DNA of 64,000 nt, taken from the IMG/VR virus record IMGVR_UViG_2882828558_000007, positions 1 to 64,000 of that record. One strand, 5' to 3'. The DNA comes from a virus. Taxonomy: Duplodnaviria > Caudoviricetes. The notes beneath the pieces are model-generated. The model was not told the DNA's origin. It did not search any database and worked only from the letters and a program-made list of their open reading frames with translations. Below are positions 2,307 to 64,000 of this stretch, piece by piece. Position numbers and translations under genes: made by a program. Position 1 is the stretch's first letter, and every line of letters begins with the position of its first letter.

Positions 2307-3388
2307 CGGTTGCTTGCAGATTTTGCCTGCAAGTCACTGATTTCATTGAGAAAATCAGCCTCTTCAATTTCCGTAGCTTCCGTGTGCAGGATTTGTGCAC
2401 TTTTTTCGACGTTCTCGCCGAAGATAGCATCCACGACGTCGTGAGCCGGATCGGCCTTTGCGTACGTATCCATCATCACTTTTGGACTGGCCCATCCACC
2501 TAAGCGTGCAGCGGTAACTGGGTCTATACCGCGTCGGACAACAAGCTCCGTGGCGAATGTGACGCGGCCAGCGGAGTGTGGCGGCGCATACGCGATGCCA
2601 GCGTCGTCACACACAGATTTCCACCCATTGTACACGGCGTGCCGGCTTGCGTAGCCGAATAGGCCGTTGACCTTCTTCTTGTTCTGCCGGTTCCTTTTGG
2701 GGTCGACGGCCATCAGCGGCCGAAGCATTTCTGCGAGGACTGGAGAGATGCGCGTCAGGCGAGGCTTGGTCTTCGTCTTGGTGAGCATTACCGTCCGCGC
2801 CTCCAGGTCAACATCGTTCGCCGTGACGCGGCACGCCTCACTGATGCGGGCGGCCGTCTCCCACATGAACCGGGCCATGGCCGTCATGCCTGGAGATTTT
2901 GACTTCGCGGCGAACTTGGCGTGCCACTCAGCGTCAACGGCCTCCTTCTTCTTCGGGTCGACGGCGAATCGCTTGATCTTGATTTGCCGGCCGTCCTCAT
3001 CCTGGTAGGCGAAATTCACTATTGCCTGCACGGGGGTCAGGACTTGCCTGTTCAATGTCGCTGGCGATGCGGCTGGGTATAGGTCTTTCGCGTGTTGGCG
3101 AACCCACTCCGGTTTCAGCCCGCGCAGCTTGCGCTTCCCCCACTTCTTGATGATTGGCTCGATGAACCGACCATCTTTCCCAGCCGCGAGATAGGCGTAT
3201 GCAGCGTCCGCTATCGTCTTCTCTTCATCAAAGCCCCGCTGATCGGCCAGCCTGATTTGAGCCGCCCTCTCCTCTGCTAGCGCTTGAGCTTCCTTTTTCG
3301 AAGCAAGGCCAGTGCTTTCTCGGTGGTATCCGTCGGGGCGACTGACGCCGAAGTAGTAGACCTTCCCTCGTTTGAATAACTTCGCCAT
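2300..3388 (-). CDS. int: Phage integrase (tyrosine recombinase)
   Basis: ETAARISEA, KTKTK, HSAGR, LGGW, MDTYAK motifs; N-terminal arm-binding-like segment; adjacent to the tRNA fragment. Confidence 0.9.
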   Translation of the reverse strand: MAKLFKRGKVYYFGVSRPDGYHRESTGLASKKEAQALAEERAAQIRLADQRGFDEEKTIADAAYAYLAAGKDGRFIEPIIKKWGKRKLRGLKPEWVRQHAKDLYPAASPATLNRQVLTPVQAIVNFAYQDEDGRQIKIKRFAVDPKKKEAVDAEWHAKFAAKSKSPGMTAMARFMWETAARISEACRVTANDVDLEARTVMLTKTKTKPRLTRISPVLAEMLRPLMAVDPKRNRQNKKKVNGLFGYASRHAVYNGWKSVCDDAGIAYAPPHSAGRVTFATELVVRRGIDPVTAARLGGWASPKVMMDTYAKADPAHDVVDAIFGENVEKSAQILHTEATEIEEADFLNEISDLQAKSASNRP

Positions 3389-3600
3389 TTGGCTTTTTCC
3401 TCTTTAAGCAGTTCCGGTATGTCGTCGATGGAGATGAGCATCGCTCTTCCTATCTTTCTTGAGACGCCCACCCGCCTGGCTTTCTCCCAGACGGTGCGCG
3501 CCGACATACTAACACCACTCGCAGCGGTGATCCTCTCAGCGATGGCCTCTGGCGTCAGGAGCCGGTCGATAGCCGGTATATTGTCGTTATCGTGGTGCAT
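3277..3600 (-). CDS. Putative excisionase / HTH DNA-binding protein
   Basis: LLTPEAIAERI...SARTVWEKARR winged-helix pattern; directly upstream of and overlapping int; AGAGGAG RBS. Confidence 0.65.
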   Translation of the reverse strand: MHHDNDNIPAIDRLLTPEAIAERITAASGVSMSARTVWEKARRVGVSRKIGRAMLISIDDIPELLKEEKAKWRSYSNEGRSTTSASVAPTDTTEKALALLRKRKLKR

Positions 3601-3642
3601 TGCTCTCCTCTTTGCGGCCGTTTGACGGGCGGGGTTGGGTGG

Positions 3643-3882
3643 TTATGGATTGAGGATAGTTTGCGCGATGTGCTCTGCCACGCGATGCCCGCCGACAGGC
3701 CCCCATCCGTTTAGGTGCCGTGCCACGTCAGAGCAGCGCTGGCGCTCTGCGAGGATGGCGGCGGCGATGAGGTGAACGGCCGGCGCATCGTCCGTTGTGT
3801 CCATTGGAATATCGCCTATCTTCTGCAGTTGCTCATGCACCTCGCATGCGGCAGTCACGACATCTTCCGGCATGTTGCTCAC
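3643..3882 (-). CDS. Hypothetical phage protein
   Basis: 79 aa ORF, AGGAGG RBS, overlap with the upstream gene. Confidence 0.6.
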   Translation of the reverse strand: MSNMPEDVVTAACEVHEQLQKIGDIPMDTTDDAPAVHLIAAAILAERQRCSDVARHLNGWGPVGGHRVAEHIAQTILNP

Positions 3883-4073
3883 GTCGCCCTCCTATAAACG
3901 ATGCGCCCAGACTTCCTGCACATAACGAACCATCCTCCCGTGCCGTTGCGGATGCAAGACGACACAGCATCGGACATCCAGCCCCATACCGTGTGCACTG
4001 TCCCATCGGGCCGGCAGGTTAGATAGTGCCTCACGCTGCCCTCCTGATGGCTTCTAGCCCGTACAGAAGCCAT
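3879..4073 (-). CDS. Hypothetical phage protein (start uncertain, possibly GTG near 4034)
   Basis: Fits the chain of coupled ORFs. Confidence 0.45.
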   Translation of the reverse strand: MASVRARSHQEGSVRHYLTCRPDGTVHTVWGWMSDAVSSCIRNGTGGWFVMCRKSGRIVYRRAT

Positions 4074-4750
4074 TCCGTTTCGCGCTCCAGATCCTGCACC
4101 GTTGCCGCGATAATCGTATGATCTGCCTCAACAAGCGCCTGCACGCTGTCACTCTCTATGCCTTCCGGTCCTTCGAAGTCAGGCCGTTCCAGCCGCAAGA
4201 CAACTCCGCCCTGCGCCTTAAACCACGGCGCTTCATACACAAGGCTCTCCACGACGATCGGTGCTCGCGGCGACTCCCGACGAATGCGGGCAATCTCCAT
4301 GGCGAGTGTCCATTCTACTCCCATCGTCACACCCATAAAGTGACCGAACTTCTCTAAGAAGAATCGCGGGGCCACGTTGCCAGGCAGATGAGAAGACGGC
4401 ACGTCCTTCAACTCGCCGTAAACCATGCGCTCGGCAAGTATGATGTCTCCAGTGACGTGTGCGAAGTAATATAGGGCCGCCTCCTTGCCGCCGTCGAAGG
4501 CATGCGCGCGGGCGAACCCATAGCGCTCTTCAAGCAGTGTGGCGACGGTGGACTTGCCGACATTACGCTTTCCAGTAATGCCGAGAAGTAGCGGGCGATG
4601 GTTGTCGTTGGCAACCACCATCTCGGCGCTGTTCAGGTATGAAAACCGGCCCGCTGACGGCTCACGCAGCCGCTCTACTGGTTCATGGCTTAACCGCTCA
4701 TACTTCCCGATCGCCGCACCGAGGGCGGCAAGTTGCGGTTCGTGAGTCAT
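4031..4750 (-). CDS. Deoxynucleoside monophosphate kinase-like P-loop protein
   Basis: GITGKRNVGKSTVA Walker A; ESDSVQAL...ADHTII C-terminus as in phage dNMP kinases. Confidence 0.7.
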   Translation of the reverse strand: MTHEPQLAALGAAIGKYERLSHEPVERLREPSAGRFSYLNSAEMVVANDNHRPLLLGITGKRNVGKSTVATLLEERYGFARAHAFDGGKEAALYYFAHVTGDIILAERMVYGELKDVPSSHLPGNVAPRFFLEKFGHFMGVTMGVEWTLAMEIARIRRESPRAPIVVESLVYEAPWFKAQGGVVLRLERPDFEGPEGIESDSVQALVEADHTIIAATVQDLERETEWLLYGLEAIRRAA

Positions 4751-6180: not shown

Positions 6181-6404
6181 GTTCGCGTCCTCCGAACAGA
6201 GGTGACTGAGTAGCTCCACGCACGCAGAGGCAAGCTAGCCTCCAGCGCCCGTTCCGCAGCGTCGTTCCAATCCTTAGCCGGAACGGTGAGCGTTACATCC
6301 CGCGTCTCCGTGTCTAGCTCATGCCCGTCGAGGTACGGATGGCGTCCATCCAGATGCACGACCACCTCATATGGATAGGTCTTTCTCTTGAACCAACGCA
6401 TCAC
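6177..6404 (-). CDS. Hypothetical phage protein
   Basis: 75 aa coupled ORF. Confidence 0.55.
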   Translation of the reverse strand: MMRWFKRKTYPYEVVVHLDGRHPYLDGHELDTETRDVTLTVPAKDWNDAAERALEASLPLRAWSYSVTSVRRTRT

Positions 6405-7069
6405 ACCCTCCCCACCTTGTTCTCAGCTAGCCACCGCGGCGATACATGAAGGATCGGCTTGCCAGCCCGCACGAACTCCTCGATCTCGTACTGCAGCCCA
6501 ACCGACTCCTGCCAGCCAGCCATCGTCAGAACGATCATACCGGCCGCGCCATCCACCAAAGGCTGGCACTGGCGCTTCCAGAAGTCCCACGTCAGCGGCA
6601 GGTCGCCCGCCAGCGTAATGGCATGGCCGTGCGCGATCGGACTGTAGACGACCATTCCGAACCGCATGAGCCGCGCGGCAGCATCCGCGACAACGCGGGC
6701 CGCAGCATCGTGGCCGGCCTCGTACTTACTGTAGGGCGAGCCGAGGTAGACGTAGCCTGACTGGTCAGCGAGAAGAGCAAGGCCTTGCGGCAGGCGCTCC
6801 TCCGGCGTCATCTCCATGTGGGGATTGTCGCCGTAGAACTGTCTGCTGTCCGTGGACGCCGGACGCCGCAGCCCGACGTAGATGCCGCCGTCGAATTCAG
6901 GCTGTGGAAGCATCGGCCGCATGTTGCCGGCCGAGTCCACGCTCATGCCAGCCGCCACATGCGTTGCTGGCACATTATCATTCGCCGGCCGATACTTCTC
7001 GAGCGAGCCGAAGGCGGTGGTGGTGAGTTCGACGGGGACAGGGGATTCGTTCTTGAATGCGTACATCAC
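6401..7069 (-). CDS. DUF1937 / nucleoside deoxyribosyltransferase-fold protein with N-terminal extension
   Basis: YVYLGSPYS...VVYSPIAHGH...W...CQPLVDGAAGMIVLTMAGWQESVGLQYEIE. Confidence 0.7.
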   Translation of the reverse strand: MMYAFKNESPVPVELTTTAFGSLEKYRPANDNVPATHVAAGMSVDSAGNMRPMLPQPEFDGGIYVGLRRPASTDSRQFYGDNPHMEMTPEERLPQGLALLADQSGYVYLGSPYSKYEAGHDAAARVVADAAARLMRFGMVVYSPIAHGHAITLAGDLPLTWDFWKRQCQPLVDGAAGMIVLTMAGWQESVGLQYEIEEFVRAGKPILHVSPRWLAENKVGRV

Positions 7070-7206
7070 GCGGCCCTCCGGATGTCTTCGATATGCGGAC
7101 CCTTGATCTCAATGGTACCCACGGGTCCACCGGCAACGTCGTCCGCAATTTCTCGGCTGAAGCACTTGACCATCCATTCGTCTACTTGGCCTTGAAAGCC
7201 ATCCAT
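7066..7206 (-). CDS. Small hypothetical protein (46 aa)
   Basis: MDGFQGQVERMVKC...DIRRAA; AGAGGAG RBS. Confidence 0.45.
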   Translation of the reverse strand: MDGFQGQVDEWMVKCFSREIADDVAGGPVGTIEIKGPHIEDIRRAA

Positions 7207-7258
7207 CTAAGTCTCCTCTTGTGGTAGTCCTGCCGGTTGGTGGCCGGCAGGGTGGTGG

Positions 7259-7546
7259 TTAGCGTCGGCTTGATCGCAGCCGCTCGTTAGGATCATGCGG
7301 GATTTCTATCCAGCCTATCCGCAACGTGGAGTATCCGTTAAAAAACTCGCGCCGGAAGGCGTAATACCATTCGCGCCACGTTGGTTTGCGGCGGCGCTCG
7401 AACACACGCGCCGCTACCGTGGACACCCTATGACCTTGACGGATCGCCCTGACTATCTCTCCGAACATGAGGCAGGTTAGAAGCGTGACTACGCCAACGC
7501 CTATGGCCGCGAAGGGCGTCACCAACAATATGATCAAGGAGCTCAA
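7259..7546 (-). CDS. Membrane-anchored hypothetical protein (TTG start)
   Basis: N-terminal hydrophobic helix; start overlaps the upstream stop; AGGAG RBS. Confidence 0.5.
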   Translation of the reverse strand: MSSLIILLVTPFAAIGVGVVTLLTCLMFGEIVRAIRQGHRVSTVAARVFERRRKPTWREWYYAFRREFFNGYSTLRIGWIEIPHDPNERLRSSRR

Positions 7547-8793
7547 GCCACACTCCTCTGTTCTGCCGGCACGTTGTCGTTGGCCGCATCCATCATGGCC
7601 ACCCGGACACGCGACACCTCGCCGAACTCGCGATGGTACGAGATCGACTGCATCGACCGCCCCGATAGGAAGCCCGCTCCGAAATGCCACGCATCCTGGG
7701 GCGTCGGCGTCTGGTGCGATTCAGAAATCACGCCATTGCCTTCTGTCGCGAACTTGCTGGAGTGGTGGATATGGAATCCGTGCACGAAACGGTGACGGGT
7801 AGCGCCCCAGTCCTCCGCCCGGCGGTGCGCCATGATGCTGGCCATATCCTTCAGCTTGACGGTGTGCCCGTGTGTGGCGCCAAGCAGCACCTTGCCGAAC
7901 CGAAACCAGAAGAACAGCGACGGGTCGACGTCGACCGTCACGCGAGGCTCGTTGCGATACCAGGCCAGTAGGAAATAGGCGACCGCGACCGAGGCGTGTT
8001 CGTCGTGGTTGCCCGGCAGGATGCGCACCGTGACGTGGCCGTGCCGGCGGAGATTGGCGTCGATCGTGCGAACGACCAGTCGGCAGGCCGTCATCAGCAC
8101 CTTCTGATACCGCCCATCGACCTGCAGGGCGTTGCCCGACCGCGCCGTCTTGTTCTCGTTCGTATCGCTATGCAAAAGGTCCCCGCCACCCAGCACGATA
8201 GCATGAGCGCTCCGCGGTGTGCGGCTGATAAGGTCTTCGACGCCACGACCGATCGTGTCTTCGGCCAGTTTGAGGTCCCAGTTCGTGTCGGCCTCGCGAT
8301 GCCACGCGAATAGGCCTATGTGCCAGTCAGCCAGCGGCGTGAGCGTGAGCAGATCCTGGCACGCCATGGATGGCGCCATCGTCGGGCGCGCAGGCTCAAC
8401 ATCCTTGAACGCCTCCTTCAGGATTTCGGCTATATCCTGCGGCGCATATTCGTTGCGGGTCTTCACCCACCGCTGAATCGTCCGGCCTTCCGCATCAACA
8501 AGCGCCGATACGCCCTTGACGGTATGTCCTGCTGGCACCTCGAATTCCGGGCCGACATCCGGCTTCTGCTGCACATAGTCGCCGTGCGGGCCGTTGCTCA
8601 CCTTCACGATGCGGAATCCCGGCAACACCGGCTTGGTGCCAAGTAACCCCCGCTCCGCCGCCCGTCTGAGGCGGTTCTGGAAGCTGGAGCGCGCAAGGCC
8701 GAGCGCGGCGGCCGCAGCAGACTGGCTGCCGTGCGCATGCATGGCGGCAACGGCTTCGGCGATCTGTTCGTCAGTTAGGATTGGTTGGGGCAT
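7543..8793 (-). CDS. Calcineurin-like metallophosphoesterase with N-terminal HTH
   Basis: LADWHIG, GGGDLLH, LPGNHD, ATHGH, HGFHIHH motifs; SQSAAAAALGLARSSFQNRL HTH. Confidence 0.8.
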   Translation of the reverse strand: MPQPILTDEQIAEAVAAMHAHGSQSAAAAALGLARSSFQNRLRRAAERGLLGTKPVLPGFRIVKVSNGPHGDYVQQKPDVGPEFEVPAGHTVKGVSALVDAEGRTIQRWVKTRNEYAPQDIAEILKEAFKDVEPARPTMAPSMACQDLLTLTPLADWHIGLFAWHREADTNWDLKLAEDTIGRGVEDLISRTPRSAHAIVLGGGDLLHSDTNENKTARSGNALQVDGRYQKVLMTACRLVVRTIDANLRRHGHVTVRILPGNHDEHASVAVAYFLLAWYRNEPRVTVDVDPSLFFWFRFGKVLLGATHGHTVKLKDMASIMAHRRAEDWGATRHRFVHGFHIHHSSKFATEGNGVISESHQTPTPQDAWHFGAGFLSGRSMQSISYHREFGEVSRVRVAMMDAANDNVPAEQRSVA

Positions 8794-33539: not shown

Positions 33540-34891
<1,352 letters not shown>

Positions 34892-34916
34892 TGTTAACTC
34901 CTCATCTAGCGGCAAC

Positions 34917-34944
34917 AAAAAGCCCGCCAGAAGAACTAGCGGGC
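34917..34944 (-). terminator. Terminator between the accessory helicase and the mini-ATPase
   Basis: GCCCGCTAG/CTGGCGGGC stem plus TTTTT. Confidence 0.6.
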
Positions 34945-34970
34945 CTTGTCTTGGCGCCGGTGATTTTGGG

Positions 34971-45961: not shown

Positions 45962-46037
45962 TGGTTGCGGAGCCCCGGAGTCGAACCGGGTGTCTCGTGG
46001 TTATGAGCCACGCGAGATACCGTTTCTCTAGCCCGCA
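45962..46037 (-). tRNA. Phage tRNA, anticodon CAT (Met or Ile2), encoded CCA
   Basis: Cloverleaf: D stem GAGA/TCTC, anticodon stem CGTGG/CCACG with loop CTCATAA, T arm CCCGG-TTCGACT-CCGGG; acceptor stem has one extra nucleotide. Confidence 0.85.
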
Positions 46038-46746: not shown

Positions 46747-47673
46747 TTATGCCGCTCGCAATTTTCTTCCTTGGTCGATCGAAACGAGGATTTCAGCCAG
46801 CTCGACCAGTGCGGCCTTGCCCGCCTCAAGTGCTTCCGACTCCTTGAAGCCCAGTCGCAAACCGATCGACTTCAAGTTCCCGCGCGCCGCCACTTCGTCG
46901 ATGATCCCGGCCGCATCACTGCCGCGCTCTTCCGGCGCTTCCCACATGACAGCACCGCTTGACGAATTGCCTGTCGGGCTGCACACGCCGCCCATGAACG
47001 ACGCGCCCTCTGCTACGGCATCAGGACCGAGCCGTGCCGCATGCGGCAGCTGCCCTGCCGGGACGCCGCCATCCACGCCGTGGGCCTGCAGCTCCTTCCT
47101 GGCTGCCTCAACACCCGGCAGCGGGTCATACATCGGCGCGAGCGCCGGAAGGCCTGAGAAGTCACGATGGCAGTGCGCTGCGTGCATCGGCGATGGCGTT
47201 GTGGCCTTCGTCGCAAGGTAGAGCCAAGGCGTGCGTTCCTTGCTGGTCTTCTTCTCGGTGCTGCGCGCCCTATCCGTCGGTTTGAGCTTCTTGCCCTTCT
47301 TCGTGACACCCCACTCTGTAAGCCTGCCGTGCAGGAACTTCAGGCTGCCGATCTCGGTGCGGCCCTTGCTCGTGTGGGCCACAGGAAGCACGTTGCCTTC
47401 CTTGTCATGCGACGCTGCCATGATCTCGCCGATGGTCGGGCGGATTTCCTGCCTCGTCGGCTCGACATCGACGAACCAGTTCGCTGCAGGTCGAGGAAGG
47501 GCGGCGGCGAGCGCCGGAGCGAGTTCAGGGTGGTTGTCGTACAGCCAGCGAAGAGCGGGCAGCGTCCCGCGGTATCTCGGGTTCTGTGGCTTGTTGTCGT
47601 TCGCGGCTTTGAGCGGCTTCGGCGGGGCGTTGATGGCAGCGTGTAGCTGCTCGGCCAATGAACCTCTTCTCAT
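46747..47673 (-). CDS. Putative late transcriptional regulator (308 aa)
   Basis: Start moved to MRRGSLAEQL (GAGGAG RBS); last gene before the late leader; C-terminal HTH-like NLKSIGLRLG. Confidence 0.55.
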   Translation of the reverse strand: MRRGSLAEQLHAAINAPPKPLKAANDNKPQNPRYRGTLPALRWLYDNHPELAPALAAALPRPAANWFVDVEPTRQEIRPTIGEIMAASHDKEGNVLPVAHTSKGRTEIGSLKFLHGRLTEWGVTKKGKKLKPTDRARSTEKKTSKERTPWLYLATKATTPSPMHAAHCHRDFSGLPALAPMYDPLPGVEAARKELQAHGVDGGVPAGQLPHAARLGPDAVAEGASFMGGVCSPTGNSSSGAVMWEAPEERGSDAAGIIDEVAARGNLKSIGLRLGFKESEALEAGKAALVELAEILVSIDQGRKLRAA

Positions 47674-49860: not shown

Positions 49861-52134
49861 TCAGGCGGCCTCAGCCGGCCGGACGAACTTTATCTTACGG
49901 TCAAAATGCTTCGGGTCCGGCTCGTCAACGACGGCAAGTATGCCACTCGATATCCATGCGTCGAGAATGGCCTTGACCTTGCGCTTGTCCGCGGTCATGG
50001 CCTTTGCTGTTTCCACATGCATGCCCAACGCTGACGCGAGGACGTACCCGGCCCAGTCTTCAGACTGAGACGACTCGCGGTAATTCTGGTTGGCGAATCG
50101 CACCAGGACTTCCTTGCGCACGTCCGGAGGGACGGCCTCGGCGATCTCCTCCTTGGACGGCCATTTCCACTCAGTCACCACAGGGGCGAAGTCCTGAGGC
50201 TTCGTGAGACCTCGACCATTGCCCAGTGGAACGCCTACGAGGTGACGCCAATCCAGCTTACTGCTTAGTGGGGTTAGGTTCGACTTGCCATAGGTCACGG
50301 AGAAGTACCCGAACCTGTCAGCGCCGTCGACGCCGGCCTCGTTTGCTTGCTCCGGTGACATGCGGTTCAGGACGCGAACCGATCGAGCCGCGCCGATGAG
50401 GGAAACCGCACCTCGAGCGTCTTCGACGGTAGCCTCCCGGTCGGCGACCTTGCGCAGATGGTGGACGATGTCGATCGCGCAGTTCGTGTAGTCAGCGATT
50501 TGCGCCCACAGCTTGGCCACCTTATCGATTGCCCCGTTGTCGTTCTCATTGACGCTGTGCGTCGACACGAACGGGTCCACGATCATCACGTCTATCTTGT
50601 TCCGCTCTATCTGTTCGACCACAGCCTCCACGATAGGTTGCTGGATGCGCACGCCTGCCTTCTTGTCGTCAACAGCGACGACCAGCTCCTGCTCGCGCCC
50701 GCTATCGAGAAACAGGTGCCCCTCGATGTCTTCCGGCTTTAGCTTGTAGTGGATGGCGGCAGCCATGATGCGCCGCTCCATCTCGTCGCGAGGATCTTCC
50801 GCATTAAACACCCACACACGCAGGCGCTCCGCAGGCTTGGTGCCGAGCAAAGTCTTGCCCGACGTCATCGCAAGAGCTTCCGCAAGGCTAAGGCTGGTCT
50901 TCCCCAAGCCGCCGGGGCTGACTGTTACGGACACGTATTTACGGATCAGGTGATTTCCATAGGCGAACTCTCGACGGGCAATGGACTTCGGGTCGATCCA
51001 CTTGAATGCGGTAGCAGTCAGCGGACTATTGTCGTTCGCCGGCTCCTCGTGCGCCGTATCGGTGATCCCGGTCGGGATATCTTCAGTCTCCGGGGCGTCT
51101 GGCTTGGCGCTTTCATCCCGTTCGGGATCATTCTCACCTTCAACGGCGACATCGTACCGCTCGGGAAGCCCCGTCTTTACACGTGCCTTGCGTAGCCCGT
51201 TGGCGACCATGCGCTGCACGTCGACAAGGCGCGTGTTGTCCTGGTGAAAATCCTGCTCCGGCGGATGACGCGGCTGGAGCGCGCCGGCCTTCAGGCCATT
51301 TTCGATGGTTTTGCAGCAGCGAGACCAATCCCTGCCCCATCCACGCGCTACGTCCTGTAGTTGAGCACGCGCTTCCGATTCGGACAGGTGGCCACCGCCA
51401 ACCCACTGCCCGAGCGAGAACGCCGCGTCATTGAGTGCGTTGTTCCGGTTTCCCATCGGCTCTGATGCAAGGTCAGATAGCTCTCTCTCGATCGCCGCGT
51501 CGACATAGACAACATTCGTGGAACTCGCGGCATAGTGCGTGTGGGACGGCGCGGATTTCGGCAATAGCAGGTCGAGCAGCCAGGCCGGGGCGTCGGCGAT
51601 CTCGCGCGTGTCGTCCGCCCACTTGTAGTGTCGTCCATTGGACAGGACGCTGCCCGCCGCAACGACGTAGCCGCCTTCCGACCGGATATCCACGCCAGCA
51701 CCGAGTGCGCCGCGGTTGCGTGTGCCGGCCACGTATTTGAAATAGATGTGCAGGCCGCCATTCGGGCTAATGACGCGCGCCGTCACAGGGAGGGGGCCGT
51801 GCTCCGCCTCCATGTCCGAAAGCCAGGCGAAACCGTTGGCTCCGCCTGGCTTGTTGTCGATGTCTAGCGCGAAGAAACCAGTCGGCGACCCCGTAGGGAG
51901 GCCGATGGCCGCGTCTGGCCAGTCGCTCCACCACCTGTCGATGATGTGCTGGAACTTCGTCGCCTGCTTGAAGCCATGAATCGTGAGAGGTGTTTTCTCG
52001 CCTAGGGTCGTTACTTCGCCTGTATGTCGATCGACAACATCTTCTGCCTCTGAGCGGCAGGGGAATACCGGCCATCCCTGGGAGACGTAGGCATTGGCAA
52101 GTTGATGGGGCGTGGGTTGTGTGGTTTCGGTCAT
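49861..52134 (-). CDS. Bifunctional primase/polymerase fused to a RepA-like (AAA_25) helicase
   Basis: GWPVFPC, IGLPTG...LDID, SPNGGLHIYF, GVDIRSEGGYVV; SPGGLGKTS, IVDPF, HH.RK; start moved to MTETTQP. Confidence 0.9.
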   Translation of the reverse strand: MTETTQPTPHQLANAYVSQGWPVFPCRSEAEDVVDRHTGEVTTLGEKTPLTIHGFKQATKFQHIIDRWWSDWPDAAIGLPTGSPTGFFALDIDNKPGGANGFAWLSDMEAEHGPLPVTARVISPNGGLHIYFKYVAGTRNRGALGAGVDIRSEGGYVVAAGSVLSNGRHYKWADDTREIADAPAWLLDLLLPKSAPSHTHYAASSTNVVYVDAAIERELSDLASEPMGNRNNALNDAAFSLGQWVGGGHLSESEARAQLQDVARGWGRDWSRCCKTIENGLKAGALQPRHPPEQDFHQDNTRLVDVQRMVANGLRKARVKTGLPERYDVAVEGENDPERDESAKPDAPETEDIPTGITDTAHEEPANDNSPLTATAFKWIDPKSIARREFAYGNHLIRKYVSVTVSPGGLGKTSLSLAEALAMTSGKTLLGTKPAERLRVWVFNAEDPRDEMERRIMAAAIHYKLKPEDIEGHLFLDSGREQELVVAVDDKKAGVRIQQPIVEAVVEQIERNKIDVMIVDPFVSTHSVNENDNGAIDKVAKLWAQIADYTNCAIDIVHHLRKVADREATVEDARGAVSLIGAARSVRVLNRMSPEQANEAGVDGADRFGYFSVTYGKSNLTPLSSKLDWRHLVGVPLGNGRGLTKPQDFAPVVTEWKWPSKEEIAEAVPPDVRKEVLVRFANQNYRESSQSEDWAGYVLASALGMHVETAKAMTADKRKVKAILDAWISSGILAVVDEPDPKHFDRKIKFVRPAEAA

Positions 52135-52685: not shown

Positions 52686-52876
52686 CCTCCGCCGAACTGG
52701 AATCCCGGTGCGCAGCATTGTTCGGCGCCAATTGGCAGACGGCATTCGCGCGCCACAGTGGTGTGGACGCGCGAACCGTTCGACGTTGGAAGGCTGGCGA
52801 CCGTGAAATCCCGCCATGGGTGAATGCGTTGCTTCACGCATGGGAGACCTTGCGCGAGATGGGGGCGGATTGGTAG
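52682..52876 (+). CDS. Small HTH protein
   Basis: WQTAFARHSGVDARTVRRWKAGDREIP. Confidence 0.75.
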   Translation: MTSAELESRCAALFGANWQTAFARHSGVDARTVRRWKAGDREIPPWVNALLHAWETLREMGADW

Positions 52877-53547
52877 TTGTCGTTGGCCGCCTCTGGAACC
52901 TTCGCCGTCCTCGCTATCGAGATAAGCATCTCACGGAAGGGAACCGGCGTATGGATTCGCGGTGTGCTGTTCTGCCCCCCGCCTTTCGCCCCAACCTCAC
53001 CGAGGCGCTTGGCGCGCTTCAGCCCCATTCTGGCGATCACTTCCGGATCAAGACGTGGTTCGCCGATGCCCCAGTCGAGATCAGGTAGCTCTACCCTGTA
53101 CGCGACCAGCAGCGTGGGCTTACGGGCATAGTGCCCATATCGCCCCTGCTCGACGCAACACGTCCAGCCACCATGGAAGTCTGCGGAAATCCACCCGCCC
53201 TCTCGTGGCGGTTTGTTCAAGCCGAAGTGCGCCCACGCATGACTGCCCCACGGATGCTCTATGACGCCGCCCCATTTTCGCGCCGCGGCCAGAGCGGCTG
53301 CAAAGCACCCACCATCGTCGCCTTTCACTTTCCGTATGCCAGTCTGCTTGATGAACAGCGGCTGTCCAGCCCACAGCTTGCCCCATCTCTGGCACGGCGG
53401 ATGGGCAACGACCGGGTGCGGGCCGTCATAGAGCCGCGCGTCGCGAACCTCGTCCCATGGGTCGACGCCGGGCAAGCCGTAGTAGGCGCCATTGGTTTCG
53501 ACATAGAGGGCGGCGACGGGACGAACGTTATCATTATCGTGCTTCAT
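52834..53547 (-). CDS. C5-cytosine methyltransferase-like protein (PPCQ motif, atypical)
   Basis: DARLYDGPHPVVAHPPCQRW; GGVIEHP; no clear FxGxG motif I. Confidence 0.55.
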   Translation of the reverse strand: MKHDNDNVRPVAALYVETNGAYYGLPGVDPWDEVRDARLYDGPHPVVAHPPCQRWGKLWAGQPLFIKQTGIRKVKGDDGGCFAAALAAARKWGGVIEHPWGSHAWAHFGLNKPPREGGWISADFHGGWTCCVEQGRYGHYARKPTLLVAYRVELPDLDWGIGEPRLDPEVIARMGLKRAKRLGEVGAKGGGQNSTPRIHTPVPFREMLISIARTAKVPEAANDNYQSAPISRKVSHA

Positions 53548-53750
53548 TGCGCCCCTTTCAGATCGCCGCGCACGACGATCGATGTCTTGGTACGATATGC
53601 GTAGAACGGCGTCTTCTTGCCGCGCAGGTCGAGGAACGCTACGCCGGCAGCGAAGCCTCTACGCTCGGGGTAGTCAGCCTGAAACTGCAAAGCGACGGAC
53701 AGTGCGTCGCCCCAGTTCTCCGGCTTGGTGTTGGTTATTTTCAGGTCCAT
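53544..53750 (-). CDS. Hypothetical protein
   Basis: Start moved to MDLKITN. Confidence 0.5.
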   Translation of the reverse strand: MDLKITNTKPENWGDALSVALQFQADYPERRGFAAGVAFLDLRGKKTPFYAYRTKTSIVVRGDLKGAQ

Positions 53751-54133
53751 CAAAAAGGCGCCTCTTCTCGCAGCAAACGCCGCAACGTGTCCCCGAACGC
53801 CATGACGATCCGCTTGCACAGCATCTTGGCGTCGAGCTCGTCGAAGTGGTTCAGGTCGGAAATCCCGCGCTCGTCGATGATCGCCCCGAGCTCTTCCAGG
53901 CAGCCGTCAAGGGCCTTGAGTTCGTACACGTCAAACCGCCGCATATCGCGGACGGTCTCGATCAGGGCGCTGCATTCAAGGCAGAGATAACCGGGGTCCT
54001 TGTCGGTTCGGGACGTGAAGCCAACACCGACGCCGAACGACCGCATGCTGCAGACTCGGCAGACGGTCGGGTTGCCATGCTCGTCGGCCGTGGGCGTTAT
54101 GGGCAGGATGTCTTTGCCTGGGAGCCGGGTCAT
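53750..54133 (-). CDS. Zn-binding hypothetical protein
   Basis: CRVC...CLEC; ends EEAPF. Confidence 0.6.
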   Translation of the reverse strand: MTRLPGKDILPITPTADEHGNPTVCRVCSMRSFGVGVGFTSRTDKDPGYLCLECSALIETVRDMRRFDVYELKALDGCLEELGAIIDERGISDLNHFDELDAKMLCKRIVMAFGDTLRRLLREEAPF

Positions 54134-54981
54134 GCTGCCACCGCGGAGAAGAGGTCGGCTTGCCGTGCCCGATTGTCGTTCGCTGGCGCAACGGTTATTG
54201 CTGGCGCAATAACTTCTGGCGCCGGCATTGCCACGTCACCCTCTTGCGCGAAGTCGACGCAGACGATCTCGCACATCGGCGAGACTCCCTTCCAATCGTT
54301 GATGTAGAAAGCCGTATCGATGCCGCAACCAGCGTCAAAGTGAATGCCGGTAAATTCCTGGAACTTGACCGCCTTGCCGTCCTTCTGTCGCTCGTAGCAC
54401 GGGCGTCCACTGTAGTTAAAACCGGCCGACATCTGAGGGACGATGAACGCCCCGCTGCCAGCAAGGTGGGCCGCGATATCGATAACGTGGAACTCGAAGT
54501 CCTTTCCGCTATAACGCGGACTATTGCGCTCGCGCTTGATGGCACCGAACGGTGGATTGCTGATCGCCACGTCGAACCGGCCAAGCTCCATGTCGAGCAC
54601 GTCCAGTACGTCGGCCAGAACCCACTCCGCCTCGGGCAGGATTTTCTGCCCGACTGCAAGATAGTCAGGATTGCGCTCCACGCAGGTGATGCGCGCCTTC
54701 TGGTGGCTTCTGTGCCAGCATGCATAAGACAGCATGCCTATGCCAGCGCACAGGTCGATGATGCGGCCGCTGTAACCGCCTTGTCCTATGGCGTCGATTG
54801 TGAAGTCGAAGGCCATGTCGTAAGGCGTGAAGAACGCTCCTGCCGCACCGTTGACGTGGTTGGCGCCCTCGTTCCAGTTCCGAAGAACAAACTCTTTTTC
54901 GTCTTCGGTGAGTACGGGCTTTGTTAAGAGGTCGCACGCCTGCGCATGCGCCTTGGCTTGCGCCTTGGTGAGTTTGGCCAT
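54130..54981 (-). CDS. N6-adenine DNA methyltransferase-like
   Basis: GAFFTP, DLCAGIG, ISNPPF. Confidence 0.85.
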   Translation of the reverse strand: MAKLTKAQAKAHAQACDLLTKPVLTEDEKEFVLRNWNEGANHVNGAAGAFFTPYDMAFDFTIDAIGQGGYSGRIIDLCAGIGMLSYACWHRSHQKARITCVERNPDYLAVGQKILPEAEWVLADVLDVLDMELGRFDVAISNPPFGAIKRERNSPRYSGKDFEFHVIDIAAHLAGSGAFIVPQMSAGFNYSGRPCYERQKDGKAVKFQEFTGIHFDAGCGIDTAFYINDWKGVSPMCEIVCVDFAQEGDVAMPAPEVIAPAITVAPANDNRARQADLFSAVAA

Positions 54982-55559
54982 TATGCTGCCTCCTGCAGGG
55001 AGGGGATGTTATCATTCGCAGCAACCAGCGGCGAAAACCTCCCAACCTCATTCCCCCACGCTGACCACCCGGCCCACGCCTGCCGAGCAAACAGCTCGAG
55101 GTAAGGCCCGGCGACCAACTGCTCGACGCGGCCATAGACTTCGTCCGGCTTCCGGCTGTGTTCACGCCGCGGTGCGCGGATGACGGAGCGGACACCACGC
55201 GAAAGGCGGCGGGGCTTTCCGCGCTTGAACAGGTGGCAGATCTCGACTTCCTGACGGGTCCAGTAACCCATTCCCATACGGCCCTTGTCCCATATGAAGG
55301 CTACGGAGACGGGCTTGAACCCCCAGGCAGCCGCCACGTCGAAGGCTTCACGCTGCAGGTGGCTGACCGTCCACATGAACAGCAGGCAATCCTTGGCTGC
55401 GACTTCCGCGACGGGAAGCGCCGCGATATCGGCGAGCGACATCACGGCATAGGGCTGCTCACCTCGAGCGGGGGCTAGTTGCTGATTGGAGTAACTTCTG
55501 AACGACCACGGCGGGTCGGCCAAAATTGCGCCGTAGCGCCCTTCTGGTAGCGGCTGCAT
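54981..55559 (-). CDS. MT-A70 family adenine methyltransferase
   Basis: ILADPPW, LLFMW, HSRKP, YLELFAR, WGNE. Confidence 0.9.
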   Translation of the reverse strand: MQPLPEGRYGAILADPPWSFRSYSNQQLAPARGEQPYAVMSLADIAALPVAEVAAKDCLLFMWTVSHLQREAFDVAAAWGFKPVSVAFIWDKGRMGMGYWTRQEVEICHLFKRGKPRRLSRGVRSVIRAPRREHSRKPDEVYGRVEQLVAGPYLELFARQAWAGWSAWGNEVGRFSPLVAANDNIPSLQEAA

Positions 55560-58226: not shown

Positions 58227-59963
58227 CTAAAACGGAATGTCATCTGCCATCGCCACCGCCAGCCGGCGCGTAGGCACATTGTTGTTGCTCGGGGCGGGTA
58301 CGTTGTCATTCGCAACAGCAGCAACGGTGTGCCCGACAACGTCCCACCACTTCCCGCGTGGTTTGACGAGGATCTCGGCGGTATCACGAAGCTCTCCCTG
58401 TCGCTCCAGCCACTCCATCACCGTCTTTGGGAACGGCCTTGAGCCACCATGGGCGAGCCAGAAACGATCGGCTCTGCTCTTGGGGAACCCGTTATGCTGG
58501 GGGCATAACCATTCGTTCACGTGGTTCATTCCGACCTGGTACGACACCTTCACCGAAGGCGTCTCGCCCTTCTCATGGAACCAGAACTTGCGCGAACGTA
58601 CCTTCCGGGATTCGGGCTCTGCAACAGTGGCCAGGATCGCGACATCGGTCGGCTTGGCGGTGAACTTAGGCTTTTCCTCGAACTCGAATTGATAGCCACA
58701 GTTCGGACAGACCCGCGCACCAGCGGCGACGATCTCCTCACACTGCATACAAACCTTGATTGGTGCCTCTCCCGTCCCCTTGCCTGGCTTTTTCGGCGTA
58801 ACGCAGTCCACGGGCCCGTGTCGTTCGATATTGCCGGCAAAGTTCATATACCGGCAGTTTGGCTTCGGACCCATCGCTATGGCAGCCTTTCGCCCTTCGG
58901 CGTCAGACGTTTCGGGGTCGAACCCCGCAGGCCAGACGACCCGCGTTCCACGTCCGGCGCGTTGAACATAGCGGTTGGCGCTTTCCGTAGGAGCCAGGTC
59001 TGGAATCAGGTCAACGCCCGGAATGTTCGTACCTGTGCTGAGGACGTTGTCGTTGGTGCACCCCCACAAACGGCCGGCCTTCAGGTCGGCGATGATCTTG
59101 CGCCGCTCACCTTTCGGTGTCTTTCCGCTTAGCACCTCGCAAGTTTTGCCGTATTTGCGGATCTCGTCACGAACGTGGGTAGCGTGATCGATGCCGTTAC
59201 AGAAGATGATGGCCGTCTTTCTGTTTTCTGCATTGGCATAGGCCATGATTTCCGCGACGGCGGCGCGGGTTAGTTCCTCCTTGTCCGTAGCCTTGGCGAG
59301 GTCTGACTTCTTGAAGTCTCCCCCCAGCCGATGGACACCCGTCATATCGTACTGGAGCTCAGTCGGCTTGCTGGTCAGGCGCGTCAGGTAGCCATCGTCG
59401 ATCGCCTGCGCGATGCTGTAGGTGTAGACGACCTTGTCGAACAGTCGGTCTTCGCCCTCATCGAGGCGGCCAGAATCAAGGCGGTACGGCGTTGCCGTAA
59501 AGCCAACAATCTTCATGTCCGGATTGATTTCGAACAGCGCCGCGATAAGCTTTCGGTACATCGTGTTGCCGTCGTTCGGCACGAGATGCACCTCGTCGAT
59601 CTTCAGCACGTCGACATGGCCGATCAGGTCGGCCTTGTCCCATATGGTTTGCAGCTGACCGAAGACAACCTGTGCCCGATAGTCCCGCCGGTTAAGGCTG
59701 GCGGCAGCTATCCCGGCTGGAGCAAATGGGCACATGCCCACAAACTCCATGAAGTTTCCCTCGACGAGCTCTTCGACGTGCGTGGCGTTGAGAATGCGGA
59801 TGTCTGGCCACCCCTCAACGAGACGCTTATCTAGCATGGCCATAGTGCCGCTCTTCCCGGTGCCCGTGGCCATATCAACGAGCGGGTGTCCGGGTTCTTC
59901 GGCCCAGTAGTCGAAGACCGCATCGACGGCCTCGATCTGATAGTAGCGCGGATTGAACGCCAT
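58227..59963 (-). CDS. SF2 DEAD/DEAH helicase (replication module)
   Basis: ATGTGKS, DEVH, TATP, VQRAGRGTR, CMQC...CPNC; C-terminal DDIPF. Confidence 0.9.
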   Translation of the reverse strand: MAFNPRYYQIEAVDAVFDYWAEEPGHPLVDMATGTGKSGTMAMLDKRLVEGWPDIRILNATHVEELVEGNFMEFVGMCPFAPAGIAAASLNRRDYRAQVVFGQLQTIWDKADLIGHVDVLKIDEVHLVPNDGNTMYRKLIAALFEINPDMKIVGFTATPYRLDSGRLDEGEDRLFDKVVYTYSIAQAIDDGYLTRLTSKPTELQYDMTGVHRLGGDFKKSDLAKATDKEELTRAAVAEIMAYANAENRKTAIIFCNGIDHATHVRDEIRKYGKTCEVLSGKTPKGERRKIIADLKAGRLWGCTNDNVLSTGTNIPGVDLIPDLAPTESANRYVQRAGRGTRVVWPAGFDPETSDAEGRKAAIAMGPKPNCRYMNFAGNIERHGPVDCVTPKKPGKGTGEAPIKVCMQCEEIVAAGARVCPNCGYQFEFEEKPKFTAKPTDVAILATVAEPESRKVRSRKFWFHEKGETPSVKVSYQVGMNHVNEWLCPQHNGFPKSRADRFWLAHGGSRPFPKTVMEWLERQGELRDTAEILVKPRGKWWDVVGHTVAAVANDNVPAPSNNNVPTRRLAVAMADDIPF

Positions 59964-60115
59964 CACGCCACCTCAGCCGTCTTGCCTTTCCCACGCCCCT
60001 CCTCCCGCGCAAACGCCTGCGCCAGCCGGATGGCGTCTTCGCGCACGACGATCCAGCCGGCGTTTCGCAACGCCGCCAGCTGCTCGGGACCTATGATATC
60101 GCGCGGATGGATCAT
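59963..60115 (-). CDS. Small hypothetical protein (50 aa)
   Basis: MIHPRDIIGPEQLAALRNAGW...; coupled at both ends. Confidence 0.5.
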   Translation of the reverse strand: MIHPRDIIGPEQLAALRNAGWIVVREDAIRLAQAFAREEGRGKGKTAEVA

Positions 60116-60624
60116 GCTGCTGCCCTCAGCTCGGCGCGGAGCTTGGCAATGCCCGCCTCCTCGATCTGCCGCACGCGCTCACGGGACACGCCGATTTCCG
60201 CACCAATGTCGGACAACTTGAACCCCATGCCTCTGCGCAGGAGGACGGCTCCATCACGGCCGGTCATCCGGTTGAGCACGTCCAGAGCGGCAATCGAGCG
60301 CTCCTGCGTTTCGGCAAGCGATGCGGTACGGAATGCCCTGTCGGCCTTGTCGCCGTAGACGATCGTGACGCGCTTCTTGGTCTTGTGCGCCGAGATTACC
60401 GCGCGCAGCTGCCACCGCAGCCAGCTGGGAAAGCCGCCGTTTGGCGTGTATTCGCCGTGGAAATTGCGCCAGCAGCTGAGCGCCCGCAACATGACGTCCT
60501 GGATAACGTCTTCGCGCTGCCCGGTCGGCAGGTAGCGCACCGCGAGCGCCCGAACCATAGGCATATAGCGCTCAAGGGCAGCGTCAAACTCGGCGGGGCG
60601 GTTGTCGTTGGCGTGGGTAGCCAT
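60112..60624 (-). CDS. Phage-encoded sigma70-family (ECF-like) factor
   Basis: Region 2 EDVIQDVMLRAL...FPSWLRW; region 4 LSDIGAEIGVSRERVRQIE. Confidence 0.85.
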   Translation of the reverse strand: MATHANDNRPAEFDAALERYMPMVRALAVRYLPTGQREDVIQDVMLRALSCWRNFHGEYTPNGGFPSWLRWQLRAVISAHKTKKRVTIVYGDKADRAFRTASLAETQERSIAALDVLNRMTGRDGAVLLRRGMGFKLSDIGAEIGVSRERVRQIEEAGIAKLRAELRAAA

Positions 60625-61940: not shown

Positions 61941-62119
61941 TAGGCGGACGCCTCATGCGCGCCGTCATCGACCTTGGCATCCCGCCAATGCGTCGTTGTC
62001 CACTCGTCGTAGTATCCGGACCCGTTGAGGTCTTTCATGTGGAACAGCGTGTATTCGACCTGCAGGATGAGCTTGCCGCGCCAGTTGGTGCGGTAGCGCT
62101 TTCGTCCGGTGAGGGTCAT
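61940..62119 (-). CDS. Hypothetical protein (59 aa, not in ORF track), paralog of 6004-6180
   Basis: MTLTGRKRYRTNWRGKLILQVEY...HWRDAKVDD. Confidence 0.6.
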   Translation of the reverse strand: MTLTGRKRYRTNWRGKLILQVEYTLFHMKDLNGSGYYDEWTTTHWRDAKVDDGAHEASA

Positions 62120-62331
62120 GCCGCCACCTTATGCCCTAGAGCCTCCGCGAAGTACCCGCCCACAGAGCCAACCCCTCCGCCGTCGCGCATAAGGTACGCC
62201 CCGTGAGCATGCTCCACAGACCGATACTTCGGGTCGACAGTGCGCTCCAGGATCAGCACGCCGTCATCAATGTCACCGCGCCGGATGGCTGAAATTGCCT
62301 CTCGGATAAGGTTCTTGATCTCTCGCTCCAT
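62116..62331 (-). CDS. Hypothetical protein
   Basis: 71 aa coupled ORF. Confidence 0.55.
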   Translation of the reverse strand: MEREIKNLIREAISAIRRGDIDDGVLILERTVDPKYRSVEHAHGAYLMRDGGGVGSVGGYFAEALGHKVAA

Positions 62332-63389
62332 CAGTTCACCCTCAGAGGCATGAGAACTCCGTCCCAGTTGTCGTTCTCGCCGGTCACCACTGCCGGTGAG
62401 TTGCTCTCAGACAACGCCAGCTTGACCTTGCCCGGAGGCAGGGCCGCCAGCATGTCGCGCAGGTAGAGGCTATTAAGGCCGTAATCGATCGGCTCTCCGC
62501 TGTAATCGGCAGCCACTTCATCAGCTGCTTCGCCGGCATCAGATCGGGCCGAGAACTGGATTGCGCCGGACGCGATAGACAGACGAACACCCTTGCTCTT
62601 CTCGCTGCTCACCGTCACGACGCGATCGGCCGCCCGCATCATCTCGTCGCGGTTCACGGCCACGACTTTATCGTTGTGTTGTGGGATGACCCGCTCGTAA
62701 TCGGGATACTCCATGCCGATCAGTTTGGTCGTGATCGTGATGTCCTCGCCAATGACGCGCATCTTTTCAGGGCTGACGCTGACGATCGTCGTGCCCTTCG
62801 GCATGACGCTGACCGCTTTGTTCGGGATGATGATGTCATCGAAGGAAGGCGCTTCATCGCCCTGTGAGCGAGCGAGACGGTGCCCGTCTGTCGCCACGGC
62901 AACAAGCTTTCCGGCTTTGGAGCGCAAAAGCACGCCATTGAGCATTTCGCGGATGTCGTTCGTGCCGGCAGCAAACGCCACCGAGGACAGCAGATCAGCA
63001 ATGTCCGTCTCGAACTCGGCGTTAAAGCTATCCGCGCCCATGGACGGGAAGTCCGCAGCAGGCAGCGTGCGAAGCGAGAAGCGACTACGTCCGGACTTCA
63101 CGACAAGTTTGTCATCATCCAGCAGGAGGATGATTTCGGAAGCGCCGGCCTTCTTGGCAATGTCACCGAACAACTTGGCGTCTACGCACACAGACCCAGC
63201 GGCCGCGACGGTTGCGGGCGCCTTGGCTTCCGCAACGATGGCGAGGTCTGTAGCCGTCACGGTCAGTGTGTCGTCCGTCGCGACAAGGCGCAGGTTGGAC
63301 AGGATTTCGATGATGTTTCTGCTTTCAACGACGCGGCTTACCGCCGAGATAACGCGGGAAAGCTCCGCCCGACTGATTGTCAGGTGCAT
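62331..63389 (-). CDS. dnaN: DNA polymerase III beta sliding clamp homolog
   Basis: ATDL, F.LRTLPAADFP, LVAVATDGHRLA, YPDYERVIP, GLNSLYL, VLMPLR. Confidence 0.95.
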   Translation of the reverse strand: MHLTISRAELSRVISAVSRVVESRNIIEILSNLRLVATDDTLTVTATDLAIVAEAKAPATVAAAGSVCVDAKLFGDIAKKAGASEIILLLDDDKLVVKSGRSRFSLRTLPAADFPSMGADSFNAEFETDIADLLSSVAFAAGTNDIREMLNGVLLRSKAGKLVAVATDGHRLARSQGDEAPSFDDIIIPNKAVSVMPKGTTIVSVSPEKMRVIGEDITITTKLIGMEYPDYERVIPQHNDKVVAVNRDEMMRAADRVVTVSSEKSKGVRLSIASGAIQFSARSDAGEAADEVAADYSGEPIDYGLNSLYLRDMLAALPPGKVKLALSESNSPAVVTGENDNWDGVLMPLRVN

Positions 63390-63452
63390 TGTGGTCTCCT
63401 CTTGGTGGTAGTGCGCGGCCAGTTGCAGGTAGCAACCGGCCGCTGGTGGTGG

Positions 63453-63536
63453 TTAGGCGCGGGTGAAGAGCACGGCGAGCACGTAGGCGAAGCTGAATGC
63501 AACTGCAGCAATCGCCACCGCGTCAGGCCAGCCCAT
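63453..63536 (-). CDS. 27-aa hydrophobic peptide
   Basis: MGWPDAVAIAAVAFSFAYVLAVLFTRA; TGATG overlap. Confidence 0.4.
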   Translation of the reverse strand: MGWPDAVAIAAVAFSFAYVLAVLFTRA

Positions 63537-64000
63537 CACTTCTTCCCCCAGGGCCGGCTGCCCGTAGCCGCAGCAGCCGGTCGGCTGGCCTGCTGTTGCT
63601 GGCGGTTGTCATTCGCCGCAGGTGCGCGATTGTCGTTGGCTGCTGCTGGTTTGGTTTGAACCGCATCGAGCGCAGGCTCGGGAATGTTGCCCTGATCCGG
63701 GAAGAAGTACCGCTTGACCTCCATGCGCGCCGGGAATTCAGGGGAGCCGTCTGCCTTGAGCTTCTTGCTCGGCTTGCCGAGGCCAAGCTTCACCGTGTAG
63801 GTGCGATAGTGCAGCTCCTCCGTGTCTTCCACGCCCTCAACGCCCATCGCGCGGCAGAGGGACGCAAATTCCCGTTGTCCGATCTCCTGCGCCTGCGCAT
63901 TGGTGTTTTCGAGGTTGATGAAGCCGAAGAACTTTCGACCGGACACCTCTTCTGGAGCCAGGACATTTACCGTGTACTTCATGCCGTTGCCGGTGCGCGC
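63536..64000 (-). CDS. DUF669-family ssDNA-binding-like protein (5' end outside window)
   Basis: FGFINLEN...AQEIGQREFASLCRAMGV; C-terminal RPWGKK. Confidence 0.7.
   Translation of the reverse strand, partial: ARTGNGMKYTVNVLAPEEVSGRKFFGFINLENTNAQAQEIGQREFASLCRAMGVEGVEDTEELHYRTYTVKLGLGKPSKKLKADGSPEFPARMEVKRYFFPDQGNIPEPALDAVQTKPAAANDNRAPAANDNRQQQQASRPAAAATGSRPWGKK

Follow-up and report, generated by a model that had tools for sequence, protein, structure and literature searches.

Apparent ssrA-tag mimicry across the non-virion proteins of an alphaproteobacterial temperate phage: probable built-in degrons for host SspB-ClpXP

Why should a temperate phage write the opening of its host's degradation tag into one enzyme after another? 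The question is raised by a 64,000-nucleotide stretch of viral DNA (Duplodnaviria; Caudoviricetes; positions 1 to 64,000 of IMG/VR record IMGVR_UViG_2882828558_000007, hereafter the window), which belongs to a prophage and in which an initial annotation had noticed the residues Ala-Asn-Asp-Asn (ANDN) in many non-virion proteins. These were claimed to imitate the alphaproteobacterial ssrA tag and to set turnover of their bearers by the adaptor SspB and the protease ClpXP, or else to titrate SspB. We find that the motif is real and selected at the protein level, that both its sequence and its spacing agree with the host tag, that it co-occurs with Ala-Ala C-termini and that a whole phage lineage has kept it. 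The sequence comparisons described here strongly support deliberate mimicry of the ssrA tag at the protein level. The motifs are probably built-in ssrA-like degrons read by SspB-ClpXP, so that about a third of the non-virion proteins of this phage, carrying the invariant parts of the tag, would probably have their lifetime tied to the host SspB-ClpXP system. Binding to SspB, degradation by ClpXP and a biological purpose are what we infer from this pattern.

Six-frame translation of the window returned 14 ANDN sites, starting at 4601, 6974, 7573, 34995, 41988, 47593, 51028, 52876, 54172, 55008, 58302, 60601, 63605 and 63629. A DNA search of both strands with the back-translated motif (GCN-AAY-GAY-AAY) agreed exactly, with no out-of-frame or other match on either strand. 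All 14 copies lie on the minus strand in the coding frame of a long open reading frame (ORF), just where the initial annotation had placed them, and its remark that the codons differ between copies also held on codon comparison, third positions varying synonymously. The expectation by chance is far lower, at a mean of 0.21 copies (maximum 2) in 100 dinucleotide-preserving shuffles of the window and 0.16 (maximum 3) in 2,000 within-protein residue shuffles of the phage proteins. Across the 5.37-Mb genome that harbors the prophage, 27 copies occur in ORFs of 150 aa or longer, 15 of them inside the prophage, and a crude home-made gene call adds two more copies in phage genes just outside the window end. 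The suspected excess is thereby borne out against shuffles (14 versus ~0.2), against the genome at large and against the virion proteins (none of 26, see below).

A signal acting at the level of DNA, such as a binding site or repeat, would agree with the confinement of all copies to one strand and with the use of only GCC and GCG as the Ala codon in the window. Such a signal, however, should occur independently of frame and conserve its bases throughout. The 14 sites are all in frame with variable third positions, other Ala codons occur at ANDN sites in relatives, and the flanks show no DNA similarity among the copies in the window. Because every DNA match is in frame with a gene, we discount a signal that ignores the reading frame. 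Composition or chance fares no better, given the 0.16–0.21 copies seen in shuffles and the rarity of other orderings of the same four residues in related proteins (307 ANDN and 35 NDNA, which overlaps ANDN followed by Ala, against at most 4 for each of the rest). We reject the DNA-motif, compositional and chance readings on these frame, codon and shuffle data, and would be very surprised if any of them proved correct.

The copies in the window, all on the minus strand, are as follows (gene spans in brackets):

4601–4612, minus: ANDN in the N-terminal region of a P-loop protein (4031–4750) with an Ala-Ala end and no Pfam match, from the translation and the listing of termini
6974–6985, minus: ANDN at residue 28 of a DUF1937 protein (6401–7066), ahead of the domain (residues 105–206), from the translation and Pfam
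7543–7584, minus: complete tag-like C-terminus, ANDN plus 9 residues with a Val-Ala end, of a 416-aa helix-turn-helix (HTH) protein (7543–8793)
34971–35006, minus: complete tag-like C-terminus, ANDN plus 7 residues with an Ala-Ala end, of an accessory superfamily 2 (SF2) helicase (34971–36989)
41988–41999, minus: ANDN at residue 551, in the C-terminal tail of the large terminase, TerL (41889–43649), whose nuclease domain stops at residue 531
47593–47604, minus: ANDN at residue 19 of a 303-aa protein (46747–47658) with an Ala-Ala end
51028–51039, minus: ANDN in the PrimPol/AAA_25 linker of the primase-helicase (49861–52134), which has an Ala-Ala end
52834–52887, minus: tag-like C-terminus, ANDN plus 13 residues with a His-Ala end, of a phrog_12600 protein (52834–53547)
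54130–54183, minus: tag-like C-terminus of an N6-type methyltransferase (54130–54981), with ANDN, then a clamp-binding-like QADLF, then Ala-Ala
54981–55019, minus: complete 13-residue tag mimic at the C-terminus of an MT-A70 methyltransferase (54981–55559)
58227–58313, minus: ANDN in the C-terminal tail of an SF2 helicase (58227–59963), followed by an acidic end (Asp-Asp-Ile-Pro-Phe) resembling the tip of single-stranded DNA-binding protein (SSB)
60601–60612, minus: ANDN at residues 5–8 of a sigma-70-family factor (60112–60624), ahead of region 2, with an Ala-Ala end
63605–63640, minus: C-terminal tail of a DUF669-like protein (gene 63536–64132, extending beyond the window end), with ANDN twice at a distance of 8 residues

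Five of these proteins bear a complete C-terminal tag, three finishing in Ala-Ala and two in another residue followed by Ala, and in other bearers the ANDN head is separated from an Ala-Ala end. Pfam matches among the bearers comprise a sigma-70-family factor, two SF2 helicases, MT-A70 and a second methyltransferase, PrimPol with AAA_25, a gpA-type TerL and DUF1937; the DUF669 match, at 20.7 bits, falls just below the Pfam cut-off of 21. The names given in the initial annotation therefore stand for the sigma factor, both helicases, MT-A70, the methyltransferase, the primase, TerL and DUF1937, and for DUF669 at a sub-threshold score, while "dNMP kinase", "phosphoesterase", "late regulator", "C5-MTase-like" and "HNH" found no family match. 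Where a bearer has a Pfam domain, the motif is always outside it, lying in an extension at the N-terminus, in a linker between domains or in a tail at the C-terminus. The motif of the primase-helicase is present in 36 of 56 orthologues and that of the sigma factor in 27 of 36, in the latter every time in the N-terminal extension. The four tag-like C-terminal strings that had been quoted were correct, and the variant heads that had been reported alongside are all present:

3580–3588, minus: DNDN at the N-terminus of an excisionase-like protein (3277–3600)
44528–44536, minus: SNDN in the C-terminal tail of the 44498–45274 protein
53527–53535, minus: DNDN at the N-terminus of the phrog_12600 protein (52834–53547)

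The accessory SF2 helicase, on the minus strand between head and tail genes, shares a blast cluster with the replication helicase, and its C-terminal half gives several weak HTH matches.

The distribution of the motif within the phage proteome is sharply uneven. Taking the virion block as the 26 proteins at 13440–41892, excluding 34352–36989, we found ANDN in none of its head, tail and other proteins (7,399 aa), in line with the earlier claim that capsid, portal and tail proteins lack it. The second part of the tag follows the same division: Ala-Ala C-termini occur on 21 of 57 non-structural phage proteins, on none of the 26 structural ones and on 4.2% of host ORFs. The listing of protein termini places these ends as one further set of features:

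4031–63389, minus: Ala-Ala C-termini on 21 of 57 non-structural proteins

They are encoded with all four Ala codons, and several run into the ribosome-binding site and the start codon of the gene that follows. Since translationally coupled structural genes show no Ala-Ala ends, we take this signal to be mainly a protein-level one. The integrase (2300–3388) and the proteins of the repressor region have no tag at the C-terminus.

What the phage appears to copy is found in its own host. An alphaproteobacterial-type transfer-messenger RNA (tmRNA) encodes the tag ANDNYAEARLAA, which starts with ANDN and ends in Ala-Ala, and an SspB gene lies ~150 bases downstream of the tmRNA gene. The product is close to solved structures (Agrobacterium SspB-like protein 2NYS and Caulobacter SspB 2QAS/2QAZ) and, compared with 32 relatives, shows the usual build of the adaptor, in which a variable acidic linker joins a conserved binding domain to an invariant C-terminal peptide. 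It is the single SspB match in the whole genome and is chromosomal; a genome-wide search found no SspB homologue encoded by the prophage. ClpX is present, including its zinc N-domain. Because the nearest named SspB proteins come from Shinella, the host is assigned to the Rhizobium family.

The tags encoded by five hosts of related prophages vary in their central part, yet all start with ANDN and end in Ala-Ala with 8–9 residues after ANDN; the residue right after the head is Tyr, Asn or Arg, followed by Ala. A set of 130 non-redundant related C-terminal tails with ANDN includes 74 finishing in Ala-Ala, and in 59 of these 74 the residues after ANDN number 7–10, with a mode of 8. Together, the five-host comparison and the tail spacing indicate that the phages copy exactly the invariant parts of the host tags, at native spacing. 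The tag mimic of MT-A70 even equals, at 13 residues, the length of the host tag including its added Ala. Head and end also keep company: in this phage, an Ala-Ala end is seen in 9 of 14 ANDN proteins versus 12 of 43 others. When related loci were clustered into 37 families, 12 had ANDN in at least half of their members, 14 had Ala-Ala ends and 9 had both, which gives Ala-Ala in 9 of 12 ANDN families versus 5 of 25 others (p = 0.003).

The related loci were found via the primase (27–77% identity) and number 59, 43 from IMG/VR and 16 from bacterial genomes (Agrobacterium, Rhizobium, Limoniibacter, Ahrensia, Roseobacter and a Bradyrhizobium-family genome). In these prophages and phages the coding strand has 396 ANDN copies and the opposite strand 5; of the 396, 308 are preceded by Ala (186) or Pro (122). 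Within families, the motif occupies short extensions of variable length, and in the MT-A70 and cytosine methyltransferase families it is N-terminal in one orthologue and C-terminal in another. A particularly clear case is the N6-type methyltransferase, where the alignment shows a hypervariable tail after the catalytic domain, with ANDN, Q..LF and the final Ala-Ala as the only conserved islands; an AlphaFold2 model of this protein from a 13-sequence alignment (mean predicted local distance difference test score of 43) was too poor for use. Tandem pairs of ANDN, as in DUF669, recur in several relatives.

Megablast against cultured phages gave no close DNA-level relative. The same replication module is nevertheless carried by cultured phages RHph_X2_26 (primase identity of 48%), RHph_X2_25 and 16-3 (both ~30%). 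In Rhizobium phage RHph_X2_25 (MW960032.1, 20000–68757), ANDN and Ala-Ala ends are again frequent in early proteins. The structural module of that phage is a different, HK97-like one, in which the terminase and the prohead protease have Ala-Ala ends.

How might such a two-part signal work? The alphaproteobacterial SspB orthologue is said, in work of Lessner 2007 and Chien 2007, to treat the alphaproteobacterial tag as the E. coli adaptor treats its own. The SspB domain of E. coli tethers a substrate to ClpX by binding the first seven residues of its tag (PMC9963277). The phage genes encode the head, [Ala/Pro]-Ala-Asn-Asp-Asn, which SspB holds in the native tag, and the Ala-Ala-COOH end, which ClpX reads. 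In five window proteins the two are joined at the C-terminus as a complete tag as long as the native one, and in the remaining bearers the head lies in an N-terminal extension or linker with Ala-Ala at the C-terminus. SspB would then be likely to tether the bearers, which are non-virion enzymes of replication, methylation, transcription and packaging, to ClpXP for turnover, and virion proteins, having neither part, would stay stable. Candidate purposes include switching off early functions on schedule, clearing harmful lytic proteins that leak in lysogens, or coupling phage development to the proteolytic capacity of the host. Consistent with such degrons are a head identical to that of the host, Ala-Ala C-termini, native spacing, and a host that has both SspB and the ClpX N-domain.

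A number of observations count against the degron reading and have to be weighed. The residues straight after the head are unlike those of native tags: position +1 is variable in the phage motif rather than Tyr, Asn or Arg, and +2 is Pro in 153 of 396 related sites, whereas no native tag examined has Pro there. In five host-prophage pairs, we saw no covariation of the post-ANDN residue with each host's own tag. The mimicry proposed at the outset is thus upheld at the sequence level (host tag, Ala-Ala on 21 of 57 proteins, spacing, co-occurrence and 59 loci) and falls short at the residues after the head. Because the +1 and +2 residues deviate in this way, SspB is a probable rather than a certain receptor, and a different one may be involved. 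TerL, DUF669, DUF1937 and the SF2 helicase at 58227–59963 carry ANDN but have no Ala-Ala end, and many of the Ala-Ala ends follow Glu, Arg or Lys, not a hydrophobic residue, which may make them weak ClpX signals. Overlap with the ribosome-binding region or start codon of the next gene could also make a small DNA-level contribution to the Ala-Ala half. The major capsid protein of RHph_X2_25 carries one AANDN copy, so the non-virion rule is not absolute. Finally, clamp-binding-like and SSB-tip-like peptides in the same tails indicate that these phages use docking peptides freely, which calls for caution.

These last points lead to an alternative in which ANDN docks onto a receptor other than SspB, for instance a hub encoded by the phage, or a host protein of replication or repair, through which enzymes that handle DNA would be collected at the phage replisome, the likeness to the tag being convergent or incidental. 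Most bearers are indeed DNA-metabolism enzymes, their tails also carry other docking peptides (a clamp-binding-like QADLF, in a phage with its own beta clamp, and SSB-tip-like ends), and the Pro preferred at +2 is foreign to native tags. Left unexplained, however, are the Ala-Ala ends on the same proteins, the native-like spacing of the C-terminal tags and the copying of exactly those parts that are invariant among hosts; the sigma factor, the terminase and uncharacterized small proteins are bearers too, and no candidate receptor was identified. Docking elsewhere is for these reasons an unlikely contender.

If the motifs are instead ssrA-like degrons, they could still act in trans, as decoys that saturate SspB-ClpXP and thereby stabilize other substrates or disable host quality control. 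The sequence evidence for mimicry is the same for decoys as for degrons, and tandem double copies in DUF669 and several relatives would suit them. A decoy is, however, expected to be one abundant protein with many copies, and what we find is usually one copy per protein, spread over ~16 different enzymes, kept by orthologues at protein-specific positions and missing from the abundant virion proteins. The same three features favor an effect in cis on each bearer. Since the motifs are spread singly over many enzymes and not massed on one abundant decoy, the titration of SspB that the initial annotation had offered as its second option is less likely, and decoys of any kind seem to us improbable.

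A more ambitious version of the degron reading, which we put forward tentatively and consider doubtful as it stands, treats the tags as conditional degrons through which host SspB-ClpXP would serve the phage both as a global timer and as a sensor. Several tails have the tag head immediately next to a peptide that docks a partner, clamp-binding-like in the methyltransferase of this clamp-encoding phage and SSB-tip-like in the helicase; proteins engaged at the replisome would then be shielded and free ones destroyed. Since the capacity of SspB and ClpXP varies with host physiology, the lifetime of the whole early proteome, along with the lysis-lysogeny decision, might follow the state of the host.

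Comparison with the native system and with other phages shows where this arrangement departs from precedent. Both the phage copies and the native alphaproteobacterial tag have an (Ala)-Ala-Asn-Asp-Asn head, an Ala-Ala-COOH end and a spacing of 8–9 residues. The native tag, however, is added by trans-translation to broken products after translation has begun, whereas the phage copy is encoded in intact genes, its head may be N-terminal or part of a linker, well away from Ala-Ala, and the residue after the head is non-aromatic with Pro favored at +2. A head remote from the end is not without parallel. E. coli RseA(1-108) and the engineered DAS+4 tags are reportedly SspB-dependent ClpXP substrates, the former described by Flynn et al. 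in 2004 and the latter by McGinness et al. in 2006. A weak ClpX signal is what makes degradation depend on SspB. Engineered SspB-dependent tags are in use (PMC3064785). Like the phage motifs, RseA(1-108) and DAS+4 have a bipartite signal, with an SspB-binding stretch apart from a C-terminal ClpX signal of the Ala-Ala type; unlike them, RseA has an SspB-binding stretch that does not resemble the tag head, and DAS+4 tags are synthetic. Natural RseA(1-108) and the engineered tags therefore provide a precedent for bearers whose head is remote from the Ala-Ala end.

The nearest phage parallel is given by mycobacteriophages with integration-dependent immunity, in which ssrA-like C-terminal tags are present on integrase and repressor (Broussard et al. 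2013, as summarized in PMC9635641). There too, a phage gene encodes an ssrA-like C-terminal tag and host ClpXP sets the protein level, but the tagged proteins are two regulators, the repressor tag is lost on integration and only the C-terminal part is copied. That system is marked by tags on integrase and repressor and by an attP site in the repressor gene; here, the integrase (2300–3388) and the repressor-region proteins are untagged. In the present phage, by contrast, tags occur on about a third of the non-virion proteome, copying extends to the head that binds the adaptor and the integrase is left out. Mycobacteria are not known to have SspB. A phage that touches the SspB pathway from the other side is Pseudomonas phage pf16, which encodes an SspB homologue (PMC5587285): pf16 supplies the adaptor itself, while this prophage encodes putative ligands and no SspB homologue.

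Is the trait confined to this lineage? A back-translated pattern for a complete encoded tag (AANDN, 6–11 residues, AA, stop) matched 10 of 151 sampled genomes of the host's family, versus 2 control hits, with paired matches lying 4–35 kb apart on one contig. In a sample of the phylum, there were 9 matches in 7 of 401 genomes, all of them alphaproteobacterial, and none in 286 sampled genomes of other classes. Protein-encoded complete tags amounted to 5 matches in 4 of 115 alphaproteobacterial genomes, this genome included, and where inspected they fell in clusters of four ANDN copies on the same strand within 20 kb. Four near-identical matches in one small-genome family were not counted as protein tags, as the one checked was a native tmRNA gene with ANDN twice in its tag. 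This 22-residue native tag (locus G183:C3:218900-220900), from a small-genome alphaproteobacterial family, provides a natural example of a tandem head, comparable to the two copies in the tail of DUF669. Searching IMG/VR with the back-translated seven-residue head of the enterobacterial tag gave 8 single matches, several in giant-virus bins and none clustered, and so no hint of a corresponding mimicry of the gamma type. A gamma/beta-type complete tag (Ala-Ala-Asn-Asp-Asp/Glu-Asn head, Ala-Ala-stop) had no match in 401 genomes, with a pattern that has no positive control and that misses native tmRNA genes because the first Ala of the tags is not encoded. Text searches of the literature found no description of the ANDN motif in phages and none of tag mimicry at this scale.

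Gene-encoded degradation tags on single phage regulators, of which the mycobacteriophage integrase and repressor tags are the closest example, are already known. Here, a whole protein class, about a third of the non-virion proteome, copies the host quality-control tag including the part read by the adaptor, and a lineage of temperate phages of alphaproteobacteria has retained the trait. Should the degron reading be right, host proteolysis would be a built-in post-translational layer of phage gene control. These phages would also provide a natural set of dozens of ligands of the alphaproteobacterial SspB (SspB-alpha), varied in strength and in geometry (N-terminal, internal and C-terminal), useful for working out adaptor rules and for designing tunable degrons in rhizobia and agrobacteria. 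The cultured relatives RHph_X2_25, RHph_X2_26 and 16-3 grow on genetically tractable hosts, which makes the reading directly testable.

Other short peptides in the early proteins deserve mention in their own right. The tail of the N6-type methyltransferase has QADLF (54148–54162, minus strand) after ANDN and ahead of the final Ala-Ala; the corresponding peptide of orthologues reads QADLF, QLSLF or QLTLF, which fits the bacterial beta-clamp-binding consensus. A three-domain beta clamp is encoded by the phage itself (62331–63389, minus strand), and a clamp-tethered phage methyltransferase is a possible implication. The SF2 helicase ends in an acidic stretch and Ile-Pro-Phe (58227–58250, minus strand), with a Pro-Phe end in 37 of 41 orthologues, and a DUF6511 protein ends in Ala-Pro-Phe (53750–53770, minus strand), with Pro-Phe in 40 of 42. 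Both ends resemble the C-terminal tip of bacterial SSB, itself a known docking peptide.

Elsewhere in the window, a phage tRNA-Met (anticodon CAT; 45962–46037, minus strand) lies between the early region and the packaging genes. Beyond the window end, an AAA_24 ATPase (6738–7469 of locus L076, plus strand) ends in an SNDN variant followed by 7 residues and Ala-Ala, and three early genes neighboring it also finish in Ala-Ala, from which it appears that the early region reaches ~4 kb beyond the window end.

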